11,007 nt of DNA from a virus (Duplodnaviria; Heunggongvirae; Uroviricota; Caudoviricetes): positions 1 to 11,007 of the IMG/VR virus record IMGVR_UViG_3300029577_000220; one strand, 5' to 3'. Under the pieces are notes generated by a model. It did no database searches. It saw only the letters and a program-made list of their open reading frames with translations, and was not told the DNA's origin. Of the stretch, positions 1 through 11,007 are shown piece after piece. The position numbers and the translations under genes were made by a program. Numbering within the stretch: the first letter of the stretch is position 1; each line of letters starts with the position of its first letter.

Positions 1-1505
1 TGGTCTCTCATCCTTCTCCACTGCTGTACAAAATATAGTCTTAGCGTGGGATAATTTCCGTTTTCCAAGCGGACCCCTTTTTGTCCTCCATTCGCCCTGC
101 AAACAGGGTAGCCAGTTGGCCGATAATCAGAAGGTGAGACGCTCATAAGCTCTTTGCTGATGGTGGCCGACAGTGCGTCTTCGGTCATTTCACCGATTCC
201 GTCTTCCATCTCGTCGAGCGCCTTTAGCGCCTCCTCCAGAGTCATTTCATCCGGCGCAGGAACAAAGCCAGACTCACTGTCTTTGGGCACTTCCGCACCA
301 TCTTTATTTTCTTTGCCTTCGACGTCTTCTTCAGTTTCCCCACGATCAGTATCGGAGTCCTCACCGCCATCACCATCGATGCCAGAGCCATAACCATCAG
401 AATCATCGGTATCTTCGCGAATACCATCGCCAGGTCTTGGAGCGCCAGTGCCATTGCTGCCATCATCATCGGTGTCAGAGTCACTTGATTTCATGCCGAT
501 AGCATCGGATTCTGGGGTGTCTCCTGACTCTTCGTGGCCTGCTTCTGTATATTTACTTTCTGTATCACTAATATCTTTAACGTGTGTAGGTAAGTCCTTA
601 TCTAATGAATCAGGCAAATCGGAATCCCCAGAATCTTCCTCTTCTGATGCATCATCTTCTCGTTCTTCCTTGTCATCGCCTTCGCCTTTGGCAGGCTTAG
701 ATGCAGAGTCACCATGAGACGGCTCGTCACCTGATTCTGGCGTTTCCTCGGACTCGTCTTTGCTCTCCGACGGCTTTCTGGCAGATGATTTAAGTTCTGG
801 TAATTTGCCCTCTGGCTTGTCTTTCATATCCTGCATGATTTGGGCTATAGCAGCAGCGACCTTCACGCAATCCTCAGTGTTCGACATATTGCGAACGGCC
901 ACGTCTATACCATGCTCCTTTAGTAAGGCTACCGGCCTCTCGATAAGGCGCCAGTGTTCTTCCATAAAATCGATGAAGGGGCTTTGTCCATCCCAGGCGC
1001 GGACGACCGGGCAAAGGAAGAATTTCAAAAACAATTCACGCTGGTCTCCGTGACAGGCTAAAACCGCTTCTGGTACTTTATTCCTGAAGTATTTGTCGAT
1101 AACCAGACTCTGTGTTGCAAGTAAATTACGCCGGGTTCCGTTAAAGACCTGCCCCATTCTGCGTTCAATAAAAACGTCTTCCAGCGCATTCCAAAGCCCC
1201 GTAGACGGAGCCTTTCCTCTTTCGCGCATCTGCATTGCGACTTTCGGTTCAGTAAAGAGAATATGGGCCACCTCATGGTCGAGAAAACCACGCACTGCGT
1301 TCATGAGGGTTGGCGACGCGTCGTCCGGTATAGATGGGATGTTTACCAGCACTGGTTCGCCGCGCCGGTTATAGCGGACATATGCTTCATTGCCTCGTTC
1401 TGCAACAGGTATTTGTTTACCTGAAAGCATCGCTACAACTCGTTTTACACAGTCGCGAAAATCCTGCACCTCTTTCAGTACAGCTTTGGTGGTTTTTTTG
1501 GACAT
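1..1505 (-). CDS. Large protein with N-terminal globular region followed by a ~200-aa D/E/S/G-rich acidic low-complexity linker; architecture resembles CobT-like (cobaltochelatase CobT / vWA-associated) proteins. Start ATG at 1503-1505; 3' end lies beyond the window start, so ~501 codons are in the window.
   Basis: Minus-strand frame set by ATG 1503-1505 is open to position 3 (translated by hand at both ends: MSKKTTKAVLKEVQDFRDCVKRVVAMLSGKQIPVAERGNEAY ... SPSDYRPTGYPVCRANGGQKGVRLENGNYPTLRLYFVQQWRRMRD). AAGGGA Shine-Dalgarno-like sequence ~8 nt upstream of the ATG. The Ser-rich plus-strand ORFs in the track (154..717) are antisense shadows of the acidic repeat region. Family assignment is from architecture only. 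Confidence 0.6.
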   Translation of the reverse strand, partial: MSKKTTKAVLKEVQDFRDCVKRVVAMLSGKQIPVAERGNEAYVRYNRRGEPVLVNIPSIPDDASPTLMNAVRGFLDHEVAHILFTEPKVAMQMRERGKAPSTGLWNALEDVFIERRMGQVFNGTRRNLLATQSLVIDKYFRNKVPEAVLACHGDQRELFLKFFLCPVVRAWDGQSPFIDFMEEHWRLIERPVALLKEHGIDVAVRNMSNTEDCVKVAAAIAQIMQDMKDKPEGKLPELKSSARKPSESKDESEETPESGDEPSHGDSASKPAKGEGDDKEEREDDASEEEDSGDSDLPDSLDKDLPTHVKDISDTESKYTEAGHEESGDTPESDAIGMKSSDSDTDDDGSNGTGAPRPGDGIREDTDDSDGYGSGIDGDGGEDSDTDRGETEEDVEGKENKDGAEVPKDSESGFVPAPDEMTLEEALKALDEMEDGIGEMTEDALSATISKELMSVSPSDYRPTGYPVCRANGGQKGVRLENGNYPTLRLYFVQQWRRMRD

Positions 1506-1558
1506 TAGAATTCCCTTGTTGTTAAAACAATTTGTTTTCTGATGTGCGTAATTTATCA

Positions 1559-1591
1559 CTGTACGAACAGGCATCTAATCTGTTCGTACAG
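1559..1591. promoter_or_regulatory. Perfect 12-bp inverted repeat CTGTACGAACAG-N9-CTGTTCGTACAG in the 5' leader/promoter region of the 1..1505 gene; candidate operator or leader stem-loop.
   Basis: Arms 1559-1570 and 1580-1591 are exact reverse complements; located 54 bp upstream of the start codon at 1505. Confidence 0.4.
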
Positions 1592-1605
1592 GCGCTAGAG
1601 AGGAT

Positions 1606-1618
1606 GGGAGGGGGGGGG
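1606..1618. repeat. Homopolymeric G tract (GGGAG followed by 8 G) between the stop of the 1619..1831 ORF and the start of the 1..1505 gene.
   Basis: Direct reading of 1601-1620: aggatgggag ggggggggtt. Confidence 0.6.
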
Positions 1619-1831
1619 TTAAATTGTGCGGACGGCTACTGAACCGCAGCCGGTATTGATGAGAGTGAAGCACTTGCCCTTTAGCTCAAAGATGTATGCG
1701 GTTGCGTCTTTCATGTCAAGTAACAAAGACTTTGTTGGCAGTTCAGTGAGTATGGCTGCTGCCCCATCATCGTCAATTGAAATCGTATGTCCGACCTCAA
1801 GGGCGATCAAATTAGAAGTTATTTTTTTCAT
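1619..1831 (-). CDS. Hypothetical small protein (70 aa), divergent from the HTH regulator gene.
   Basis: ATG at 1829-1831 (minus), weak GGATGA SD-like sequence upstream; shares a 247-bp AT-rich divergent intergenic region with the 2088..2477 gene. No recognisable domain. Confidence 0.3.
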   Translation of the reverse strand: MKKITSNLIALEVGHTISIDDDGAAAILTELPTKSLLLDMKDATAYIFELKGKCFTLINTGCGSVAVRTI

Positions 1832-2087
1832 TTCATATCATCCAACTGAACACGTAAATACCTTGCAATACTACTACCTATTGTATCAATACGGAATACT
1901 TATGTATCAAATACAACTTAGTTTTAAGTTCTTAAATGAGTTATTTTTTAGATAGTTGTCTATTAATGAAGCCTTTTGCGGTCAGTAAACCTATGTAAAA
2001 AAATAGATAAGTCTTTACAACACTAACCTTTGATGTAATATCAGTAAGCACTTACCAAATAAAATCAAAACACGCAGGTTGATAATT

Positions 2088-2477
2088 ATGGCTACCAACG
2101 AAACAAAAGAAGCTAAAGTAAGTCGCTACGCTGCTTACATTGACGCTTTAATCGCGATTTCTCCGAAAAGCCAGGCGACCATCGCGAAAGAAGCAGGCTA
2201 TAAAAACCCTAACAATCTTTCACTTATCAAGAGCGGCAAAATCCCGCTTCCGATCGACAAGGTCAGAGCGTTGGCTAAAGCATTGGATGCCGATTCGGTC
2301 CGATTGATGCTAATGGTGCTGGAAGAGCGTCATCCAGAGCTGTTAGCGTTTTTTCGCGACGAAGGCACAGCCCCTCTGACTAAAGATGAAAAACTAGTTC
2401 TGGAAGCCTTCCGTCGACGTTTCGGTGACCAACGTGGTGCGTCGGAGCGGGTTGTTGAGGCAATCAAGTCGCTATGA
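2088..2477 (+). CDS. XRE/Cro-CI-type helix-turn-helix transcriptional regulator (129 aa from ATG 2088; the track ORF begins at an upstream in-frame TTG at 2079).
   Basis: HTH_3-like segment SQATIAKEAGYKNPNNLSLIKSGKIPLPIDKVRALAKALDAD; AGGT ~9 nt upstream of ATG 2088; AT-rich upstream region; convergent with the integrase and overlapping its 3' end by 6 bp. Confidence 0.65.
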   Translation: MATNETKEAKVSRYAAYIDALIAISPKSQATIAKEAGYKNPNNLSLIKSGKIPLPIDKVRALAKALDADSVRLMLMVLEERHPELLAFFRDEGTAPLTKDEKLVLEAFRRRFGDQRGASERVVEAIKSL

Positions 2478-3575
2478 GAAATTTACACGGATTAGCTCAG
2501 TAGCGAGTCGATCTCCCTTGAACTTATGATCTATCTCCTCTAAATCCTGTTTCTCTACGATTGATGCGATGTACGCCGAAAAACTGTTTAAGGCGTCTCG
2601 CATCTCGTCTATATAATCGTGTCGATCGTATACTCGATCTATCCCCTCAAGACTGTGGTTCATAATTTTGCGGGATACCTCCTGACTTATGCCTAACGCG
2701 GGGAAGTAACTACGCGCAGTACGACGCAAATCTCGGGGAGTAAATGGCTCAAGCTCCATCAACTCTGGACGTTCTAAAATCCTTCTCAACGCCTGTGATA
2801 TGGCCACCTTAGACATTGGCACATCCTCACCCTGTTTCTTGTTTGAAGGAACAAGCCACTGGCTGCCTTTTCCGTATTTGATCAGCTCCTCAACACATTT
2901 GCGCATTAGCGGGCTTAATGGTAACGAGTGCTGGCGAGCCGATTTATTCCTCGTTCCTTGATTCCATAAATTATATTCGAGGTTGAATTCTGATCTTTTA
3001 GCTCGGAGCACTTCATCTGGTCGTCTGGCCGCTACAAGGCATAATCTGGCCGCCCACTTTGTACCCTCACATACGTTGAAGTAGTCCCATACATTCCAAA
3101 AGACCCAGACCTCTGCGTCGGTCAGTTTGCGCTCGCGCGGCGTGGGCTTCGCGCCACCGGCTACTCTGTTAAGCGACATATCGTTCAATGGGGATGTATC
3201 AATTAAGCCCTGAAATGCACACCAACTGAGAAACTGCTTCATCAGCGAGAACACACGTCTGCCCTGGACGATCTTGCCCTCAAGTATTAATGGGTTCACC
3301 AGCTGGTTGACTAAAACCCTACTAATATCACTTACTTTTACTTCACAGATATGCGGCATTACATGTATCAAAATACAATGAACAGCTATTTCAGGTCGAC
3401 GTCTCGTTATCAGCAAAGATAAGCGAGTGAATAACATGAATGCGGAAGAAAACGACATATCACCGTCGAAATTGGTGGTCGACACTGCTGACAAACCGGA
3501 AGCGCGTTCGAGATACTCGATGGCTTCTCTAGAGGTGTTTTCTGCTGCGCGTGCTTTATCAAAAGTGTTTTTCAT
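2472..3575 (-). CDS. int: Tyrosine recombinase/integrase, P4-like family, lacking the N-terminal arm-binding (DUF4102-type) domain; possibly a truncated remnant.
   Basis: C-terminal catalytic region FTPRDLRRTARSYFPALGISQEVSRKIMNHSLEGIDRVYDRHDYID matches the integrase box II / R..Y architecture; core-binding region ISRVLVNQLVNPLILEGKIVQGRRVFSLMKQFLSWCAFQGLID matches the P4-integrase core-binding pattern. The region upstream of 3575 (3576-3874) is AT-rich and non-coding, so no arm-binding domain is encoded. Confidence 0.85.
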   Translation of the reverse strand: MKNTFDKARAAENTSREAIEYLERASGLSAVSTTNFDGDMSFSSAFMLFTRLSLLITRRRPEIAVHCILIHVMPHICEVKVSDISRVLVNQLVNPLILEGKIVQGRRVFSLMKQFLSWCAFQGLIDTSPLNDMSLNRVAGGAKPTPRERKLTDAEVWVFWNVWDYFNVCEGTKWAARLCLVAARRPDEVLRAKRSEFNLEYNLWNQGTRNKSARQHSLPLSPLMRKCVEELIKYGKGSQWLVPSNKKQGEDVPMSKVAISQALRRILERPELMELEPFTPRDLRRTARSYFPALGISQEVSRKIMNHSLEGIDRVYDRHDYIDEMRDALNSFSAYIASIVEKQDLEEIDHKFKGDRLATELIRVNFS

Positions 3576-3672
3576 AGTCCACTCACTGAGTGAAGCCTGT
3601 TTTTACTGTATTTATAAACAGTATGTTAGGCCTAAGTTTTGTATGATCAACAGTAAAATAGACTGTTTTTGA

Positions 3673-3707
3673 AAATGATTCCATACCTTACAAGTATGGA
3701 ATCATTT
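3673..3707. promoter_or_regulatory. Perfect 14-bp inverted repeat AAATGATTCCATAC-N7-GTATGGAATCATTT in the integrase upstream region; candidate operator/recombinase-binding site.
   Basis: Arms 3673-3686 and 3694-3707 are exact reverse complements; the arm core GTATGGAATCAT recurs at 5326-5337 and 6346-6357. Confidence 0.45.
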
Positions 3708-3874
3708 ATATAGCTTACGTAAATTCTGAATAAATTATGTAGACAAACCATCTTAAACGCTAAATAGTAAAAAGCGCCTAATAACGCCAACTTTGGAATG
3801 CCATCTGAGCCAGATTGATGAGAATGATTTGTTAGAAGAAAAAGAATGATGAAGAAGATGACGATCGCTAAAGT

Positions 3875-4291
3875 TCAGCTAGAATGGAAACCTTCTGCGA
3901 CTTCAGCGAAGTAGCTGAGCAACCTAGTATCTCTTGCTGGCATACGATCGTGAGCTGGAGTGACTAGCCCCATCAGCAAAAAACGCCCGCTATCCCACAT
4001 GTGCTCGGTATAAACGAGATAGTGGTTTGAGGTTCGGTTGTAGTTCTCTTGCCTTGCGTTCCAGGTAAGCTGGAAATGCAAATTGACGTGAATATGCTGG
4101 ACATTAGCATCAACGGCGAACGGCGGGAAGTCAAATGGCGCATCTCGTCCAAGAAGATTAGATGGTGCGCCAGTTGATTTGTAAGTAATGAACTCGGATT
4201 TGAGCTGACTTTCTAGGTCAGGGTAAACGACAAAAGTGGGCTGAAAAAAATCATCCCACGTAACTTGACTGTATTCAGCCGTTAATGCCAT
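3875..4291 (-). CDS. YafO-family toxin (ribosome-dependent mRNA interferase type), 138 aa.
   Basis: Block-wise resemblance to E. coli YafO recalled from memory: FITYKSTGAPSNLLGRDAPFDF vs FISYKRDGVLPDIFGRDALYDD; VQHIHV vs VAHIHL; RTSNHYLVYTE vs RTNDEAHLVYCQ; FLLMGLVTPAHDRMPARD vs WLLIAILKPEPHKLARD; AEGF vs AEAF. Start ATG 4289-4291 overlaps the upstream gene's last codons by 10 nt. Confidence 0.7.
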   Translation of the reverse strand: MALTAEYSQVTWDDFFQPTFVVYPDLESQLKSEFITYKSTGAPSNLLGRDAPFDFPPFAVDANVQHIHVNLHFQLTWNARQENYNRTSNHYLVYTEHMWDSGRFLLMGLVTPAHDRMPARDTRLLSYFAEVAEGFHSS

Positions 4292-4830
4292 TTAGCCGCA
4301 GCCTTGTTGCCAGTCTCTAATAGATGGTTCATGGCTAAAAGGTTGACACCAGAGTCACGCACTACAGAAGTGCGTGTAATCTGATCAATCAGATTGAGAT
4401 AGTTTTTGGTCGCAATACTGACCATTTTAATAGCCTTAAAAAACGCAAACTCAACAGTGTTTTTTTCGTAAGACATGATGACGTCTTTTTCAGGTAACAT
4501 CAAAACAAAAGATTCTGCGATACCGGCTACATGAATAGTTTGATTCTTAATTTCTTCCGCTACTTTGATAGCAGCAAAGAAGTCAGTGTCAGCATAATGA
4601 GCAAGTTCAGCGCGGCTTGAACGCAGTTCTTTAGCCAATTCATTGAGAGCAGCTGTAAGATCACTGATGTCGGTTTTGTTGACTCTAGCGCCCATCTCAT
4701 AAACCCGTTCTACAATCGTAGGCTGACACGCAACCGCTTTGGGTTGCGGCTGGATACTGGCAAGAACCAGTGCCACTGCTGCCTGCAAATGCTGGATTTT
4801 AAATTTCACGATAGACTCCATAATCGTCAT
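4282..4830 (-). CDS. Hypothetical 182-aa protein translationally coupled to the YafO-like toxin; putative cognate antitoxin/partner, not YafN/RelB-like.
   Basis: ORF with ATG at 4828-4830; stop TAA 4282-4284 overlaps the start of the YafO-like gene; no recognisable RelB/DinJ/YafN-like sequence and roughly twice the size of YafN. Confidence 0.6.
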   Translation of the reverse strand: MTIMESIVKFKIQHLQAAVALVLASIQPQPKAVACQPTIVERVYEMGARVNKTDISDLTAALNELAKELRSSRAELAHYADTDFFAAIKVAEEIKNQTIHVAGIAESFVLMLPEKDVIMSYEKNTVEFAFFKAIKMVSIATKNYLNLIDQITRTSVVRDSGVNLLAMNHLLETGNKAAAKWH

Positions 4831-4908
4831 TTCTCGACGAAGCGTAGCATTCTACTACTGAACTTAACTATAAGCTAAAAAAAGTTGGTTGCATATGCGA
4901 CTTGATAG

Positions 4909-4929
4909 CAAAAAGGGGCCGAAGCCCCT
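4909..4929 (-). terminator. Rho-independent terminator downstream of tRNA-Asn (minus-strand sense GGGGC-UUCG-GCCCC followed by UUUUU).
   Basis: Plus strand 4910-4932 aaaaaggggccgaagcccctttg: 5-bp GC stem, UUCG tetraloop on the minus strand, T-run on the minus strand (A-run 4910-4914 on plus). Confidence 0.55.
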
Positions 4930-5005
4930 TTGGATTTTGCGCTGAAAAAAGTGTTGCTACGATGCTTAGAAGCAATGGTTAAAAAACGTCTGCCGTGTCT
5001 ATCAC

Positions 5006-5080
5006 AGCGCTGAACGGTCTGGCGACATTTGCGGAGTCTTTCGTTCGGACGGTGGTGGCGAATCCAAACCGTTCAGCGCT
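5006..5080. other. Long hairpin: 13-bp perfect inverted repeat (AGCGCTGAACGGT / ACCGTTCAGCGCT) enclosing 49 nt, immediately 3' of the tRNA; possible structured RNA or degenerate tRNA-like element.
   Basis: Arms 5006-5018 and 5068-5080 are exact reverse complements; the enclosed sequence does not fold as a cloverleaf by hand. Confidence 0.35.
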
Positions 5081-5084
5081 ATGT

Positions 5085-5159
5085 TGGCGATGGTGGGTGG
5101 ACTCGAACCACCGACCAGTTGATTAACAGTCAACCGCTCTACCACTGAGCTACACCATC
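5085..5159 (-). tRNA. tRNA-Asn (anticodon GUU), 75 nt with encoded CCA.
   Basis: Minus-strand sequence GATGGTGTAGCTCAGTGGTAGAGCGGTTGACTGTTAATCAACTGGTCGGTGGTTCGAGTCCACCCACCATCGCCA folds by hand: acceptor GATGGTG/CACCATC, D-stem GCTC/GAGC, anticodon stem GTTGA/TCAAC with loop CTGTTAA, T-stem GGTGG/CCACC with loop TTCGAGT, discriminator G, CCA. Confidence 0.85.
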
Positions 5160-5408
5160 ATTTTCGCGGCGGTACTAGCTTATGGACAACCAGGCAGCCA
5201 GAAACTTTCCCGTAACTTGCACTTTACGTTAGTGCCAGACGAGGTATGTGGCTCGCTCATATGAGCGAAGATCTCGAATCTTTCTCGGTGGTTGATTGCC
5301 GTTAGATTCTTCGATCTTATTGGATGTATGGAATCATACATGTTGTGAAGCCAGGGGCAATAAAGGCAACAATGTTTTCACTAGAGGGTTAATTAATCCT
5401 GCTTTCAC

Positions 5409-5518
5409 AACGTTGAGATCACTGAACCGATTAATGTTCAACCCAACATATTGATCAGTCGCTACAGCTATGTGGAATCGCCTGTATGATTTTAAGAAAA
5501 ATCAGTGATCTCAACGTT
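5409..5518. repeat. 17-bp perfect inverted repeat (AACGTTGAGATCACTGA ... TCAGTGATCTCAACGTT) separated by 76 bp in the non-coding region between the tRNA and the small-gene cluster; candidate structured ncRNA, origin-like element or MITE-like remnant.
   Basis: Arms 5409-5425 and 5502-5518 are exact reverse complements; no convincing ORF in 5160-5900. Confidence 0.4.
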
Positions 5519-5883
5519 ATGTGCTGACTAACCAAGTCAGCCGGGTTACGTCGCCGCTTTTAACCCAAGTATAAACGACATAAGTAATGGAAATGACGTA
5601 ACAGAATGGACGGTCAGCTGAAACCGGGATGGGTGAATGGAATGATGAAACCAACCGCCCATTCTGTTACTTCATTGAATGGGGCATGGATGGTGCAATA
5701 TGCCCTATTCTGCGTTCTGCAATCACACTCGCTCAGTGTGTCCCATTTTGGTGACGAGGCTGGAAACTGACCTCGCTGGTGTTTGGCTTCTTAGGCTACT
5801 GCCAGGTATGCATCTTCGTTTGCAGTTATATTTAACGTTCAAACAGTCGCATCTCAACGAAAACAAAGTGATCTTATACATAT

Positions 5884-5909
5884 TAGATAAGTAAGTAAAT
5901 ACTTATCTA
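5884..5909. promoter_or_regulatory. Palindromic site TAGATAAGTA-AGTAAA-TACTTATCTA overlapping the stop of the 5903..6208 gene; shares the 11-mer ATAAGTAAGTA with sites at 10811-10821 and 8582-8592 (reverse complement).
   Basis: 10-bp arms 5884-5893 and 5900-5909 are reverse complements; the 11-mer recurs at two other loci, both 5' of minus-strand genes. Confidence 0.4.
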
Positions 5910-6208
5910 TCTGTGATGCGTTTAGTTGCTATCTTTTTGATCAGGCTCCCCTTTTGTTCCGAAGTTCTCATGATGATGGCGGTAAAACGCTTCGCTTGAA
6001 TAGTGATAGTTTCGTTTTCCTTGAGTTCGCCGTAATGCGTCTCTAACAGGGACCCCAGACGCCACAGACCGTCGTCTATGCGTTTATGGCTGGCGAATCT
6101 GATCAGCAGTAGCTTTACGATTAACTGACCAATGTAAAAGGCAAATCCGAAGCCGGCCGCCACAAGGTAGGTTGCCAGCCACCAGTCGAAGGAAGTCAAA
6201 TTGCTCAT
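5903..6208 (-). CDS. Hypothetical small membrane protein (101 aa).
   Basis: ORF with ATG 6206-6208; hydrophobic segment WWLATYLVAAGFGFAFYIGQLIVKLLLI; start overlaps the stop of the upstream 50-aa ORF (ATGA). Confidence 0.5.
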   Translation of the reverse strand: MSNLTSFDWWLATYLVAAGFGFAFYIGQLIVKLLLIRFASHKRIDDGLWRLGSLLETHYGELKENETITIQAKRFTAIIMRTSEQKGSLIKKIATKRITDR

Positions 6209-6357
6209 TTTCGCACTCCCGTCTCGTGAACAACCCGATACACACGCTTACCGACACGAAGTGTTTTGGTTTGCAGTTCCTGCTGGACCAGGGCGCGGCA
6301 GATTGCGAGGCCGAGGCCCACGCCACCAGTAAAAGATAAAATGATGTATGGAATCAT
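6205..6357 (-). CDS. Hypothetical 50-aa protein with a hydrophobic N-terminus (MIPYIILSFTGGVGLGLAICRALVQQ...); not in the supplied ORF track (below the size cutoff).
   Basis: Hand translation: ATG at 6355-6357 overlaps the TGA of the 6357..6569 gene (TGATG), and its own TGA (6205-6207) overlaps the ATG of the 5903..6208 gene (ATGA). Confidence 0.3.
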   Translation of the reverse strand: MIPYIILSFTGGVGLGLAICRALVQQELQTKTLRVGKRVYRVVHETGVRK

Positions 6358-6569
6358 CAGTGCGCCCCCGCCTCAGTCAATTGCTGCAACAACAAATAAC
6401 CTTTTTCAGTCAGTTGATAGTTCTCAATACATCCCTTTGGAGAAACGTTGGCGACAAGATTCATGCGCTCCAGTTTGGCTCTGGTCTTCGGCTTCCAGTT
6501 GGCGTAGAACTCCTTCCACTTGCTGATTTCACGCAGGGTTTCCTTCTCTCGTTTACTTAACATGCTCAT
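6357..6569 (-). CDS. Hypothetical small soluble protein (70 aa), Lys/Glu-rich, possibly DNA-binding.
   Basis: ORF with ATG 6567-6569; embedded in the overlapping gene chain downstream of the ligase. Confidence 0.45.
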   Translation of the reverse strand: MSMLSKREKETLREISKWKEFYANWKPKTRAKLERMNLVANVSPKGCIENYQLTEKGYLLLQQLTEAGAH

Positions 6570-6729
6570 CCTTAATCTCCTTCAGTGTGTCCGTGATATC
6601 TACTATGCGATAAATACGACCTCGCCTTTGCATGACACCGGCTTTTACGTAATCGTGGATACAGCTGGACATAACCAGACTTCCGATAACAATGCCGACG
6701 ACTAAAAATACAAACATCCAGCCGAGCAT
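6553..6729 (-). CDS. Hypothetical 58-aa protein with an N-terminal transmembrane helix (MLGWMFVFLVVGIVIGSLVM...); not in the supplied ORF track.
   Basis: Hand translation: ATG at 6727-6729 shares one base with the ligase stop codon (TGATG); TAA at 6553-6555 lies inside the start of the next gene. Confidence 0.3.
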   Translation of the reverse strand: MLGWMFVFLVVGIVIGSLVMSSCIHDYVKAGVMQRRGRIYRIVDITDTLKEIKDEHVK

Positions 6730-8051
6730 CATTCTTTATCTCCAATACGATCTTCGGTATCTCGAAGACATTTAGGCCACTTCAGACGTGGATGACGCAA
6801 GCTACCATCTGGCGTTTTCTCATGGCAGTGAACCTCAACGATGCGTCCACGATACTTCTCCTGATTGTTCCAGATTTCATCCAGGTATTTATGCTTGATA
6901 CCGCTGGCACGAACGATGACGCCGTTCTCCAGACGAATCACTATCTTGCCTAGCGTATGCGCAAATCCAGAATCCGGATCGCCAGGCTCGAAGTCGATGA
7001 TTTCACCGTCTTCTGAATCCTCGTCTTTCAGCTTCCACCAGCTGCGGGTACGTTTGAACTCGTAAACTGAATCCGGATCTTTGCCCATCTCTCCCTCTTC
7101 ATTCTCGTCCAGTCGCTTCATGAAACGTTCGATGAAATCTTCGTGGCTATGGATGATGTAGAACGGATGAAGGTGGATATCTTGCGCATAATCTTCCACG
7201 CAAGTGTTGCGGAACAACGCCACCAGCATAGCCAGGCGCTCTTTCAGCTTCATACCGGTCTTCAGGTACTCTTTGCTTTTTGCTTGAGCACGCCACTCCG
7301 GTAAGAAGAAATCGAAAATGTGGTAAACGGCACCAATGGCTTTCACGTTCTTCTTACGAAGCGCCGACACTGACTGGTTGAATGTACCTGCAGTGCCCTC
7401 TCCATCGAAGAAGATGTGATTGAAGCCGGAGAGTCTGCCCCGCTCCAGCATGGCTGGTTTAAGGTGATCGAGTGACGTAATCGGATTGCCGGTGCGCGTC
7501 AGGAAATTGACCTCACCCTCGTCCACGATGACTTCGCAGATAACCCGGAGACCATCGAGTTTGAGACTGCCGATCATTGGCCACTTGGCCTTTGGATTTG
7601 GTTTAAATGGGTATTTGTCGCCTTTCTCCTTGTACGGAGACGCCAGCTGTACCTCAAACTTCGGAATTGGGTTTTCGAACACCTTGTTGCACAGGCTGAT
7701 GCCGACACCGGCTTTCGGATCTTTCAGCAGGAAGCGACGAAACACGTCCTGCCCGTCAGCGCACATCGAGGCAACGAGTGATTCGACAGCAGCAATAGCG
7801 ATGTTCCCGGTCAGTTCGCGCGCTGCCAGCTTCTCCAGCAGATCTACTACCTTCTGGTCGCTGGGTACGGAAGTATCGAGTGGCTCGGCCACTTTGTACT
7901 TCTTCACACCGAATCGAATGAATGGATTGAGCATTAGCGAGACCATGCTCTGTTCAAATTCATCCAGATTGGCCAGCGCCTCTTTCTTGGCGTTGGTTCC
8001 CATCGTTTTAATAGCATCCAGCTTGTGCTTTAGGGCGATCAGTTTTTCCAT
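6729..8051 (-). CDS. ATP-dependent DNA ligase, T7-like (phage-type), 440 aa, with an ~80-aa N-terminal extension.
   Basis: Nucleotidyltransferase motif I KLDGLR; motif III FFDGEG; motifs IV-V EGEMGKDPDSVYEFKRTRSWWKLK (compare T7 ligase EGLIIKDP...SGWWKMK from memory); C-terminal motif VI TPDGSLRHPRL...RD. GGAGG Shine-Dalgarno 9 nt upstream of the ATG at 8051. Confidence 0.9.
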   Translation of the reverse strand: MEKLIALKHKLDAIKTMGTNAKKEALANLDEFEQSMVSLMLNPFIRFGVKKYKVAEPLDTSVPSDQKVVDLLEKLAARELTGNIAIAAVESLVASMCADGQDVFRRFLLKDPKAGVGISLCNKVFENPIPKFEVQLASPYKEKGDKYPFKPNPKAKWPMIGSLKLDGLRVICEVIVDEGEVNFLTRTGNPITSLDHLKPAMLERGRLSGFNHIFFDGEGTAGTFNQSVSALRKKNVKAIGAVYHIFDFFLPEWRAQAKSKEYLKTGMKLKERLAMLVALFRNTCVEDYAQDIHLHPFYIIHSHEDFIERFMKRLDENEEGEMGKDPDSVYEFKRTRSWWKLKDEDSEDGEIIDFEPGDPDSGFAHTLGKIVIRLENGVIVRASGIKHKYLDEIWNNQEKYRGRIVEVHCHEKTPDGSLRHPRLKWPKCLRDTEDRIGDKE

Positions 8052-8085
8052 TAGTGTTTAACCTCCATCGGTCGCTCGGGAGTTT

Positions 8086-8574
8086 TCATGTGTTTTCTTT
8101 GGTTGCTTCTTCAATGAGTGCCGCGTACACGTCAGTGACCGGCGCCAGTGAATCGGTGGGCTTGGTTTCGGATTTAGCAGGTTCTGTTTTCTTCGTGCGA
8201 TGAATAAGACTGTCAATTGTCGCGGTGTTTCGCTTCCGGGGGAGCGTTCTGGCATGGTCGTTTTGCTCTTCCACTTCTTTGATAAGTGAAGACATATCGA
8301 TGAAGTAGAGCTGTTCGTCTTTGCGGATCTCTTCGACCATCATTTTCAGTGCCTGACATTTACCAGCAGCAATAGCCGCAGCGCAGGACTGGAACGATGT
8401 AGCCGGGAGACGTTTTTCTTTATAGGCGAGGATCGTGTGTTGGCAGACTGTATAGCTGCAATGAGCCTCATGGCCGTTGAGCTTCACTTCCGGGCAGCGC
8501 AGCGAATAACCGTTGTTTCCGGAGATAGACGGGATTTTCGACAAATCTGTTCTTGTGGACATGCTTCTAACCAT
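8086..8574 (-). CDS. Hypothetical Cys/His-rich protein (162 aa), putative zinc-binding, immediately upstream of and co-oriented with the DNA ligase.
   Basis: ORF with ATG 8572-8574; segment CPEVKLNGHEAHCSYTVCQHT plus CAAAIAAGKC; 34-bp gap to the ligase start. Confidence 0.55.
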   Translation of the reverse strand: MVRSMSTRTDLSKIPSISGNNGYSLRCPEVKLNGHEAHCSYTVCQHTILAYKEKRLPATSFQSCAAAIAAGKCQALKMMVEEIRKDEQLYFIDMSSLIKEVEEQNDHARTLPRKRNTATIDSLIHRTKKTEPAKSETKPTDSLAPVTDVYAALIEEATKENT

Positions 8575-8599
8575 AATCTTGTACTTACTTATTAATCGC

Positions 8600-8627
8600 A
8601 GTTTAAAGAAGCCCCACGAGGGGGCTA
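8600..8627 (-). terminator. Candidate rho-independent terminator after the IS-interrupted gene (minus-strand AGCCCC-CUCGU-GGGGCU followed by a U-rich tail).
   Basis: Plus strand 8610-8626 agccccacgagggggct; the A-rich stretch on plus (8601-8609) gives UCUUUAAA on the minus strand. Confidence 0.4.
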
Positions 8628-8643
8628 AATGTTTTATCGAGGC

Positions 8644-9099
8644 TTACCAGGTCGCCCAGCCAGTCATTTTGTCCTGAGCAGCTTCGAACCGGTATGGGTC
8701 CAGTAAATCGTTGGTACGATGAACGGCGTAGGATTTGGCTTCTTGTTTAATCATGGGTAATTCGTTGGCCAGACGAGCCACTTGCCCTGCAAAACTGGCG
8801 AGTACTCCGTCACATGCCTGACCCACGTCGACAATGATGCGCACCAGGTCTAAGTCGCTGCGGCACATATCGCAGATAATGCCGTATTCCACCTCACGAA
8901 TGCGCTCAACGGCTTTTTTGATATCGCCACTGACCACCAATTCCAGCAAACCAGGTGGAGTTGTCAGATCTGTTACGCGCTCGGTAACTTCAGACTGTTC
9001 GACAATACTCAGGAACGCCGCGATGGACGGGTCATCCGCCACACCAGCTCTGACTTTGAGCGTGCGAAGAGTTGCGTCGACAATATCCTCAAACCGTTC
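8644..9099 (-). pseudogene. 3' portion (151 codons) of a ~270-codon gene interrupted by IS629; product unknown.
   Basis: The track ORF 8644..9042 (GTG start) extends in frame, with no stop, up to the IS boundary at 9099 (ERFEDIVDATLRTLKVRAGV ADDPSIAAF...). The frame is continuous with the fragment at 10410..10769 once the IS and one TTC copy are removed. Confidence 0.7.
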
Positions 9100-9153
9100 T
9101 GAACCGCCCCGGAAATCCTGGAGACTAAACTCCCTGAGAAAGAGGTAAACAGG

Positions 9154-9480
9154 ATGACTAAAAATACTCGTTTTTCCCCCGAAGTCCGTCAGCGGGCGAT
9201 TCGTATGGTTCTGGAAAGTCAGGATGAATATGACTCACAGTGGGCGGCAATTTGTTCCATTGCCCCAAAGATTGGCTGTACGCCGGAGACTCTGCGTGTC
9301 TGGGTTCGCCAGCATGAGCGGGATACCGGGGGCGGTGATGGTGGGCTCACCAGCGCTGAACGTCAGCGTCTGAAAGAGCTGGAACGTGAAAATCGTGAAC
9401 TGCGCCGCAGTAACGATATCCTTCGCCAGGCTTCCGCTTATTTTGCGAAGGCGGAGTTCGACCGCCTCTGGAAAAAATGA
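9154..9480 (+). CDS. IS629 transposase OrfA (HTH and leucine-zipper part), 108 aa.
   Basis: [23 protein letters not shown]... is typical of IS629/IS1203-group OrfA; ends ...LWKK* at the A6 run 9472-9477, the expected -1 frameshift window. Confidence 0.9.
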
Positions 9481-10367
9481 TGCCACTGCTGGATAAGCTG
9501 CGTGAGCAGTACGGGGTCGGACCGGTATGCAGCGAACTGCATATTGCCCCGTCAACGTATTACCATTGTCAGCAACAGCGACATCATCCGGATAAACGCA
9601 GTGCCCGTGCGCAGCACGACGACTGGCTGAAGAGAGAGATACAGCGCGTATACGATGAAAATCATCAGGTGTACGGTGTGCGTAAAGTCTGGCGTCAGTT
9701 GTTACGGGAAGGAATCAGGGTGGCCAGATGTACAGTGGCACGTCTCATGGCGGTTATGGGACTTGCCGGTGTTCTCCGGGGTAAAAAGGTCCGTACGACC
9801 ATCAGCCGGAAAGCCGTTGCCGCAGGCGACCGCGTAAACCGTCAGTTCGTGGCAGAACGACCTGACCAGCTGTGGGTGGCTGATTTTACTTACGTCAGCA
9901 CATGGCAGGGCTTCGTCTATGTGGCGTTTATCATTGATGTGTTTGCCGGATACATCGTGGGGTGGCGGGTCTCATCGTCTATGGAAACGACATTCGTGCT
10001 GGATGCGCTGGAGCAGGCGTTGTGGGCCCGTCGTCCGTCTGGCACCATCCATCACAGCGATAAAGGCTCTCAGTATGTGTCACTGGCCTATACGGAGCGA
10101 CTAAAAGAAGCCGGATTACTGGCATCAACAGGGAGTACAGGCGACTCGTATGACAACGCGATGGCTGAGAGCATCAATGGTCTTTACAAAGCGGAGGTAA
10201 TACACCGTAAGAGCTGGAAAAACCGTGCAGAAGTGGAACTGGCCACACTAACGTGGGTGGACTGGTATAACAATCGACGATTGCTGGGAAGGCTGGGCCA
10301 TACTCCTCCGGCAGAAGCAGAAAAAGCTTATTATGCTTCCATCGGAAACGATGATCTGGCAGCCTGA
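9477..10367 (+). CDS. IS629 transposase OrfB (DDE/rve catalytic domain), 296 aa; expressed as an OrfAB fusion by -1 frameshifting.
   Basis: rve-type motifs [58 protein letters not shown]; overlaps orfA by 4 nt in the -1 frame. Confidence 0.9.
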
Positions 10368-10409
10368 GTTCACAGATAAAACACTCTCCAGGAAACCCGG
10401 GGCGGTTCA

Positions 10410-10769
10410 TTCACCTTCATCGCACACAGTCTGATTGGTGTAGACAGTCTGATTAGTGTAGACAATGCGACCGTCGTACCATGCACCGATACTCACTTCG
10501 ACCGTTGCGTCTTTCATCTCGCGAGAGAACGCCACAAGTGCCGCGCGTTTCTGCTTAACACCTGACAACTCCGGGGACTCTCCAAAACGAACCCAGACCT
10601 GCATGTATTTCGAGCCTTCCGAAAGAGGTACGGTGCTCACGGACGTGGCGATATGCTCCAGTGCAGTTTGGATCGCCTCGTCGATAATCTTCTGGCGCTC
10701 TTCTGTATCAATTTCTACGCCGGATTTGTCGATGATGTCGCAGACTAACTTCTGAAATTCTTCTTTCAT
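10410..10769 (-). pseudogene. 5' portion (120 codons) of the IS629-interrupted gene; its promoter and RBS are intact.
   Basis: ATG at 10767-10769 with AGGAG 7 nt upstream; the ORF runs into the IS629 right end, where it meets a stop supplied by the IS terminal TGA (10407-10409). Confidence 0.7.
10428..10463. repeat. 18-bp tandem duplication (AGTCTGATTGGTGTAGAC / AGTCTGATTAGTGTAGAC) inside the interrupted gene, encoding VYTNQT twice.
   Basis: Units 10428-10445 and 10446-10463 differ at one position; in frame. Confidence 0.6.
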
Positions 10770-10809
10770 AGCAACTCCTGACTAACAGATGAAAATATTC
10801 TTTCAGAAA

Positions 10810-10831
10810 AATAAGTAAGTATCTACTTATT
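10810..10831. promoter_or_regulatory. Palindromic site AATAAGTA-AGTATC-TACTTATT in the promoter region of the interrupted gene; same motif family as 5884-5909.
   Basis: 8-bp arms are reverse complements; contains the 11-mer ATAAGTAAGTA; ~40 bp upstream of the start at 10769. Confidence 0.4.
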
Positions 10832-10861
10832 ATATCGGGCACAATAGTCTGCTATACGAAG

Positions 10862-11007
10862 AAGCCAGGCGTAAAAACTACTCGGATGCACATCCAGCAC
10901 CCGACAAAGCAGTCGGACAGGCCAGCAATAGGTGTTGCATTGACAGATTGAATCTACAACGGCTTTTTTTAATATGTCCCGTTCGTCGGTAACCCGCTTC
11001 AGCTCTT
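10862..11007 (-). mobile_element. Fragment of a second, different IS3-family element (OrfA C-terminus to OrfB N-terminus junction region); continues beyond the right window edge; inner boundary uncertain (between ~10833 and ~10865).
   Basis: Minus-strand translation ELKRVTDERDILKKAVVDSICQCNTYCWPVRLLCRVLDVHPSSFYAW shows the OrfA-type ...ILKKA and the OrfB-type LCRVL.V..S.(Y/F).W motif (compare IS3 MCRVLRVARSGWYTW from memory); A7 run at 10964-10970 lies at the expected frameshift window. Not IS629 (sequence differs from the in-window copy). Confidence 0.45.

Follow-up and report, generated by a model that had tools for sequence, protein, structure and literature searches.

A four-cysteine phage protein family encoded beside T4-type DNA ligases, and its candidate role as a ligase accessory factor in SSU5-type phage-plasmids

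We analyzed an 11,007-nucleotide stretch of viral DNA (IMG/VR record IMGVR_UViG_3300029577_000220, positions 1 to 11,007; hereafter the window), which is the ligase end of an SSU5/pHCM2-type phage-plasmid replication module and in which a gene for a 162-amino-acid (aa) protein lies directly ahead of a gene for an ATP-dependent DNA ligase. The smaller gene product, which we call the Cys4 protein, is placed by its alignments in a large uncharacterized phage family with an approximately 85-residue four-cysteine domain, a flexible linker and a C-terminal helix. Its gene keeps its place beside that of a ligase even in very distant phages, which makes the Cys4 protein a credible candidate helper of the ligase, and we consider it somewhat probable, from comparison of sequences, that it serves the phage enzyme as a metal-binding, non-catalytic accessory or adaptor. 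An initial annotation of the window, made from its letters alone, had named the two genes of this pair, and both open reading frames (ORFs) lie where it placed them. The pair comprises the following features.

8086..8574, minus strand: Cys4 protein, 162 aa, PHROG 5055/4558, without assigned function (ORF, PHROG, alignments)
8251..8547, minus strand: Cys4 domain, approximately residues 10-108, a beta-hairpin plus four helices (alignments, AlphaFold model)
8095..8139, minus strand: conserved C-terminal amphipathic helix motif TDVYAALIEEATKE (alignments, model)
8052..8085, minus strand: 34-nucleotide (nt) spacer from the Cys4 stop to the ligase start, with GGAGG (sequence reading)
6729..8051, minus strand: predicted ATP-dependent DNA ligase, 440 aa, T4 Dnl/Pmar-Lig type, with helical DNA-binding, nucleotidyltransferase and OB domains (ORF, PF01068, PHROG 114, PDB matches, motifs)

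The two genes are on the same strand and 34 nt apart, with GGAGG ahead of the ligase ATG. Because the gap is this short and a consensus scan found no terminator-like site within it, co-transcription of the pair is plausible and indeed probable. RefSeq and most homologues begin the Cys4 protein at Met5 (8562), giving 158 aa, and this is probably the start in the window as well.

A profile of the N-terminal 102 residues of the Cys4 protein was searched against 1.84 billion representative proteins, and 160 of these matched at E <= 1e-3, most of them 140-255 aa long with the homologous domain at the N-terminus (a few spurious repeat proteins among the matches were taken out). Alignments of 134 and of 142 members were built, 130 of the latter coming from the 160 profile clusters. 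Across the 142 aligned sequences four cysteines, C27, C44, C64 and C73 (C-x16-C-x19-C-x8-C), are invariant together with E82, and N21 is nearly so. The domain is followed by a low-complexity, disordered and mildly basic linker (median 44 residues) and then by a short conserved helix, which contains TDVYAALIEE in the window and elsewhere typically YADAINAAL or YADVVN (consensus approximately [YF]-A-D-[AV]-[IV]-N-x-A-[LIM]); longer members of the family carry an extra C-terminal tail. Among GenBank phages the family is found only in SSU5-like phages, Nickievirus and two Stenotrophomonas phages.

The four-cysteine signature differs from the Cys/His cluster (C-x7-H-x3-H-C-x4-C-x-H) to which the initial annotation had drawn attention. 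Such a string is present in the window, but its literal pattern is C27-x7-H35-x2-H38-C39-x4-C44-x-H46, with two residues rather than three between the first two histidines, and two of the four signature cysteines, C64 and C73, fall outside it. Among close relatives C27, C44, H46 and C73 are invariant and C64 nearly so, whereas H35, H38 and C39 vary; in the wider family, position 46 is histidine in 78 of 134 members. That the protein has no known family, as the same annotation held, was borne out by our searches: Pfam, NCBIfam and PADLOC gave no family match, the profile had zero matches among PDB sequences, and the PHROG families that it does match, 5055 (E 5e-92) and 4558 (E 1.7e-7), carry no function (distant relatives match both). 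The protein contains no CxxC pair, and by Pfam, NCBIfam, PDB sequence and fold it is not of the classical zinc-finger, zinc-ribbon, zf-PARP or DksA type. A GatF match (E 0.072) was far under cutoff and was taken as noise.

An AlphaFold model built on the 142-sequence alignment has a mean predicted local distance difference test (pLDDT) score of 84.3, rising to about 97 over residues 20-100, and supersedes a first run on 17 close homologues (pLDDT 48.9). The predicted fold consists of a beta-hairpin (residues 24-32 and 35-40) and helices at 41-52, 62-70, 74-85 and 94-108, beyond which the model gives a low-confidence linker and a C-terminal helix at 149-160. A structure search with this model returned no detectable structural relative among solved structures. 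The invariant cysteines sit on separate secondary-structure elements, with no CxxC knuckles. Because all four are invariant in a cytoplasmic phage protein, they most likely bind metal, either structural zinc in a Zn(Cys)4 site or iron in an Fe-S cluster.

The case for a link to the ligase comes from gene order. In 80 IMG/VR loci of SSU5-like elements the PHROG 4248 gene, the Cys4 gene and the ligase gene are syntenic almost throughout, which alone says little because all of these loci are close relatives. The informative test is provided by distant Cys4 members, approximately 25-38% identical in the domain, for which 12 contexts could be judged (two further contigs end too early). A clear ligase gene lies near the Cys4 gene in 11 of the 12. 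In eight it is directly downstream: L083 (P0051), L086 (P0049), L087 (P0059), L089 (P0084), L096 (P0047), Pseudomonas phage nickie (L093, gp107/gp106), Stenotrophomonas phage BUCTxx99 (L094, where the ligase is annotated as hypothetical) and the Aeromonas caviae plasmid pNY4622-IMP (L100). In the other three it is one unrelated gene away (L092, L099 and a 111-kb plasmid of Acinetobacter baumannii, L102). The Cys4 stop and the ligase start usually overlap in the eight directly adjoining contexts, and in many relatives the two genes are probably translationally coupled. The partner ligases are 23-32% identical to that of the window, except in L099 (71%), and the one in L087 is a 300-aa form without the DNA-binding domain. 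In L095 the Cys4 gene is followed by one for a 464-aa protein (6934-8328) that resembles ligases only weakly, in colinear fashion over their DNA-binding and OB regions, and has no recognizable motif I (KxDG); it may be a degenerate or inactivated ligase homologue, and we counted it as doubtful. The co-occurrence check proposed in the initial annotation thus found the pair kept far beyond close relatives, and the two findings that were to speak against a ligase link (assignment of the Cys4 protein to a known unrelated family, or a pair not conserved together) did not emerge.

The genes around the pair are less constant. Upstream we found the PHROG 4248 gene, an unrelated gene for a protein of 252-257 aa, a gene for a WGR-domain protein, or the primase gene directly; downstream, the gene for AplA or other small genes. 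The stand-alone WGR proteins (139-147 aa, with an RWGKxG motif) are encoded directly upstream of the Cys4 gene in L086 (7582-8001), L089 (4271-4714) and L092 (1888-2328), where the order is primase, WGR, Cys4, ligase; two of the three score above the 22-bit cutoff of Pfam PF05406 (28.2 and 23.2 bits) and the L092 protein falls below it (19.6 bits). Fusions of WGR domains to bacterial ligases are known (PMC7470946), and the upstream WGR protein fits a ligase-centered unit. Such a neighbor recalls both these fusions and the nick sensing of PARP-type proteins.

If the Cys4 protein is an accessory or adaptor of the ligase, its folded domain would contact the ligase core or nicked DNA, its tethered C-terminal helix could dock on another replisome component, and the protein would in this way bring the ligase to nicks arising from lagging-strand synthesis or from repair of the phage-plasmid genome. 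A bolder form of the proposal, which we put forward only tentatively and think rather unlikely, treats the family as a new class of dedicated ligase cofactors, dependent on metal and folded in a way not seen before, that would be the phage equivalent of XRCC1, XRCC4 or the Lig3 zinc finger. Such a cofactor would sense nicks or bind the ligase core through the four-cysteine domain and tether the enzyme to the replisome by the C-terminal helix, in some phages acting together with a stand-alone WGR nick-binding protein.

Several observations weigh against a partnership with the ligase. All Cys4 contexts found belong to one deep lineage, siphoviruses and phage-plasmids of approximately 100-120 kb with a common PhoH-DnaB-DnaG-...-ligase-CobT/CobS-DnaE module, and the adjacency may in part reflect an inherited order of genes. 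Among Klebsiella-type SSU5-like elements, loss of the ligase has occurred repeatedly (L040-L044, L048, L049, L050, L052, L054, L055 and L065): what is left is an 82-aa stub (residues 1-75) or some other truncation, or the gene has been replaced completely, and the Cys4 ORF is intact in 12 of 12 such loci; in the Escherichia coli plasmid pGS04EC-1 (L001, 8430-9752) the ligase gene has an internal stop. No Cys4 gene adjoins the T4-like ligase genes of a Pseudomonas megaplasmid and a Bacillus plasmid, and there is no Cys4-ligase fusion protein among the 150 best matches to the Cys4 profile. Because it has been lost repeatedly, the ligase is, judging from these genomes, dispensable for maintenance of the phage-plasmids. 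The Cys4 alleles in the loss loci differ by at most about 15 codons, mostly synonymously, and the same allele can be found both where the ligase is present and where it is missing (L043, L045); the losses are therefore recent, which makes them weak evidence, showing only that Cys4 was not immediately lost with the ligase. PHROG 21758 appears to correspond to the 82-aa remnant.

The same observations bear on a rival role for the Cys4 protein, that of a general component of the replisome or primosome (one that loads the helicase, associates with the primase or binds DNA, for instance) that has inherited its place beside a ligase with which it has no partnership. Such a role would suit a gene that always lies between those for DnaG primase and ligase in a module kept across the whole lineage, that is intact in all 12 loci with the ligase deleted or replaced, and that can be separated from the ligase gene by insertion of other genes, as in L092, L099 and L102. 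However, the Cys4-ligase junction is the tightest adjacency of the module, whereas the primase-Cys4 and ligase-CobT spacings vary in gene content; the stop/start overlap recurs in very distant members; and the recent losses, with their shared alleles, do not amount to long-term independence of the ligase. We regard a general replisome role as possible but doubtful.

We also considered that the Cys4 protein might be a regulator, such as a transcription factor, or might be directed at the host, for instance by inhibiting a host nuclease or ligase, with no part to play at the phage replication fork. Small metal-binding phage proteins often target the host, the Cys4 protein has no detectable homology to any replication protein, and its tethered C-terminal helix resembles a protein-docking peptide. 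Its gene nevertheless holds a constant position within the replication module, not among early or moron genes, and PADLOC gave no family for the Cys4 protein; we judge this explanation improbable. PADLOC likewise gave no defence-system match for the ligase, AplA or the neighboring genes. The role of ligase accessory factor, which the initial annotation had ventured for the Cys4 protein, stays a plausible hypothesis.

Two further features of the ligase gene bear on what kind of enzyme the Cys4 protein accompanies.

7662..8051, minus strand: ligase residues 1-130, predicted N-terminal alpha-helical DNA-binding domain, the 'extension' of the initial annotation (phmmer against 5wfy and 6dt1)
7560..7562, minus strand: codon of K164, the predicted adenylylated lysine of motif I (KLDG), aligned with T4 KADG

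The initial annotation had identified an ATP-dependent, phage-type ligase by motifs I, III, IV, V and VI, and all of these, with IIIa in addition, were located: I, KLDGLR at 164-169; III, FFDGE at 214-218; IIIa, YHIFDF at 243-248; IV, EGEMGK at 319-324; V, WWKLK at 338-342; and VI, RHPRLK at 419-424. Pfam PF01068 matches at 46.2 bits (cutoff 26.2) and PHROG 114 at E 4e-124; PHROG 30362 covers residues 319-437, and the match to Pfam DNA_ligase_C is weak (E 0.093). Scores stay below the NCBIfam equivalog cutoffs for ligases of the LigD, Lig B and Lig E types (TIGR02779, 43.8 against 227.75 bits; PRK09125, 30.6 against 200; TIGR04120, 15 against 400).

The description of this ligase as T7-like did not hold. 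T4 DNA ligase (6dt1) matches at E 3.9e-24 over residues 13-203 and 307-435 of the window protein, the latter being the T4 OB region; the N-terminal part corresponds to 6dt1 residues 28-219 (phmmer), the isolated T4 DNA-binding domain (5wfy) matches residues 12-125 (E 1.7e-5, phmmer), and the Prochlorococcus ligase (6rau/6rar) aligns with residues 28-429. T4 and Pmar ligases carry a compact seven-helix DNA-binding domain, which has no Pfam model (review PMC7470946). Because the 5wfy, 6dt1 and 6rau alignments extend into it, the N-terminal 'extension' corresponds to this helical domain, and, with the motif I lysine at position 164, approximately 130 aa precede the catalytic core. The figure of approximately 80 extra N-terminal residues is accordingly right as the excess in total length (81 aa over the 359 aa of T7 ligase) and wrong as the size of what precedes the core. 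A minimal T7-type enzyme with a newly acquired extension, preceded by a Cys/His zinc-cluster protein, could appeal to that excess, to T7 ligase (1a0i) being a detectable relative (E 7.5e-9) and to the Cys/His string; but the 1a0i alignment is restricted to residues 298-394, the protein as a whole lines up colinearly with the T4 and Pmar enzymes and is homologous to the T4 DNA-binding domain at its N-terminus, and the residues of the string vary where cysteines outside it do not. We consider that reading refuted, with scarcely any likelihood left to it. By sequence, the 440 aa make up a complete ATP-dependent DNA ligase of the T4-Dnl/Pmar-Lig type, with seven-helix DNA-binding, nucleotidyltransferase (K164) and OB domains; as an enzyme it is ordinary, already known and annotated.

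The ligase diverges far more slowly than its neighbors. In Escherichia and Klebsiella relatives (loci L037-L082) it is 84-92% identical to that of the window, against 63-67% for Cys4 and 40-60% for the upstream gene, and in L099 (4690-7354) it is 71% identical, against 38% for Cys4 and 43% for AplA. Strong constraint on the enzyme and recombinational exchange of the ligase gene are both possible causes.

The assignment of the window to an SSU5/pHCM2-type phage-plasmid follows from its matches in E. coli, all on plasmids, from its gene order and from the occurrence of the 162-aa protein in PLSDB. A 2.8-kb query around the ligase pair matched 248 of 5426 complete E. coli genomes, and 255 of 255 matching places were on plasmids, for the most part 100-140 kb in size. 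The gene order of Salmonella phage SSU5 is identical (SSU5_042-043-044(ligase)-045...tRNA-Asn-CobT), and the annotated relative pGS04EC-1 reads AAA ATPase, CobT-related protein, integrase, YafO toxin, tRNA-Asn, small genes, AplA, ligase and two hypothetical proteins. The 162-aa protein is encoded on 793 PLSDB plasmid records (Klebsiella 347, Escherichia 219, Enterobacter 91, Salmonella 49 and Yersinia 43), Yersinia pMT1-type plasmids among them. We thus found the replication-module order primase, PHROG 4248, Cys4, ligase, AplA, small genes, tRNA-Asn and CobT/CobS on plasmids and phages of approximately 100-115 kb, which in the window is broken by an insertion sequence (IS) and by an integrase/toxin-antitoxin block. 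The pair had initially been described as accessory cargo; its genes instead belong to the core replication module of SSU5-like phage-plasmids (PhoH-DnaB-DnaG-...-ligase-CobT/S-DnaE).

The remaining features of the window are as follows.

10410..10769, minus strand: N-terminal half of the PHROG 4248 gene (PHROG, synteny)
9100..10409, plus strand: IS3-family insertion sequence, IS629/IS1203 type, 1310 bp, with 25-nt inverted repeats and a TTC duplication at 9097-9099 and 10410-10412
8644..9099, minus strand: C-terminal half of the IS-split PHROG 4248 gene, homologue of SSU5_042 (PHROG, synteny)
8610..8626, no strand assigned: GC-rich hairpin AGCCCCACGAGGGGGCT between the upstream gene and the Cys4 gene (sequence scan)
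6553..6732, minus strand: AplA ('after-plasmid-ligase protein', RefSeq), 59 aa, predicted single-pass membrane protein, PHROG 4381; its start overlaps the ligase stop
6357..6569, minus strand: conserved 70-aa gene downstream of AplA, PHROG 4054 (PHROG, synteny)
5903..6208, minus strand: conserved 101-aa gene, PHROG 4507, in the SSU5_048 position (PHROG, synteny)
5085-5159, minus strand: tRNA-Asn
2079-4830, mixed content: islet beside tRNA-Asn, absent between tRNA-Asn and CobT in SSU5 (comparison with SSU5)
3875-4291: YafO-family toxin, with its 182-aa upstream partner at 4282-4830
2472-3575: tyrosine integrase, with a small helix-turn-helix (HTH) protein at 2079-2477, plus strand

The IS interrupts the PHROG 4248 gene, which immediately precedes the Cys4-ligase pair, and it may be polar on the two genes if their promoter lies further upstream; its junction in the PHROG 4248 gene was found in no complete E. 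coli genome of the collection. The hairpin at 8610-8626 may be a terminator or attenuator. A DksA-like match of the upstream gene (E 9e-4; cutoff 105 bits) was taken as noise, as were PUCC and CPP1 profile matches of AplA, which were far under their cutoffs. AplA is kept down to 43% identity (L099) and is absent from L008, L029, L068, L071, L076 and L077. The block at 2079-4830 has the appearance of an islet that integrated next to a tRNA gene belonging to the phage-plasmid itself; when the 3' end of tRNA-Asn was looked for as a direct repeat at the borders of the integrase/YafO block, nothing convincing emerged. By offset from the relative L001, a minus-strand CobT-related gene is expected at 1-1507, running off the start of the window, and the Ser/Pro-rich plus-strand ORFs at 154-717 are probably antisense artefacts.

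Set against known systems, the window ligase is predicted to share with T4 gp30 (6dt1, 5wfy) and Pmar-Lig (6rau/6rar/6rce) the DNA-binding, nucleotidyltransferase and OB domains, all six motifs, near full-length colinearity and, in K164, the lysine of T4 KADG (PMC7470946). It differs from them in being distant in sequence (E approximately 1e-23 to 1e-24), in lying within a phage-plasmid replication module and in being flanked by the Cys4 and AplA genes. To our knowledge neither Cys4 nor AplA accompanies the T4 or Pmar ligase. The closest counterparts of the pair are SSU5 gp43-gp44 and those of pHCM2/pMT1-type phage-plasmids, with the order 042-043-044-045-...-tRNA-Asn-CobT, a Cys4 protein 92.5% identical and a ligase 97-98% identical to those of the window; unlike SSU5, the window has the IS3-family insertion in the 042 homologue and the integrase, YafO and HTH block beside tRNA-Asn. 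Ligases paired with a small non-enzymatic targeting partner or element are represented by XRCC1-Lig3, the Lig3 zf-PARP finger, XRCC4-Lig4, Ku-LigD, the sliding clamp with ligase, and the WGR-ligase fusions. The Cys4 protein, as a candidate partner of this kind, shares with such systems a metal-type cysteine signature and differs from them in having no sequence or fold similarity and in its C-x16-C-x19-C-x8-C spacing without CxxC knuckles. No function is annotated for PHROG 5055/4558; their four-cysteine signature, three-part architecture and linkage to ligase genes are described from the present data. We found no study of the Cys4 protein or AplA in the literature, and the family, its signature, its unmatched predicted fold and its linkage to ligase appear undescribed in the sources searched.

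T4-type ligases, workhorses of molecular biology, are usually viewed as stand-alone enzymes, and a Cys4-ligase pair would vary the known theme of ligases with targeting partners. The four invariant cysteines, on a fold without a PDB match, mark the Cys4 protein as an obvious subject for structure determination and metal analysis. The family further serves as a signature gene for a group of clinical phage-plasmids that is very common and whose replication is poorly characterized. If the Cys4 protein does act with the ligase, a partner that improves nick recognition, processivity or recruitment would be a new element of phage lagging-strand biology and might find use in ligase engineering.

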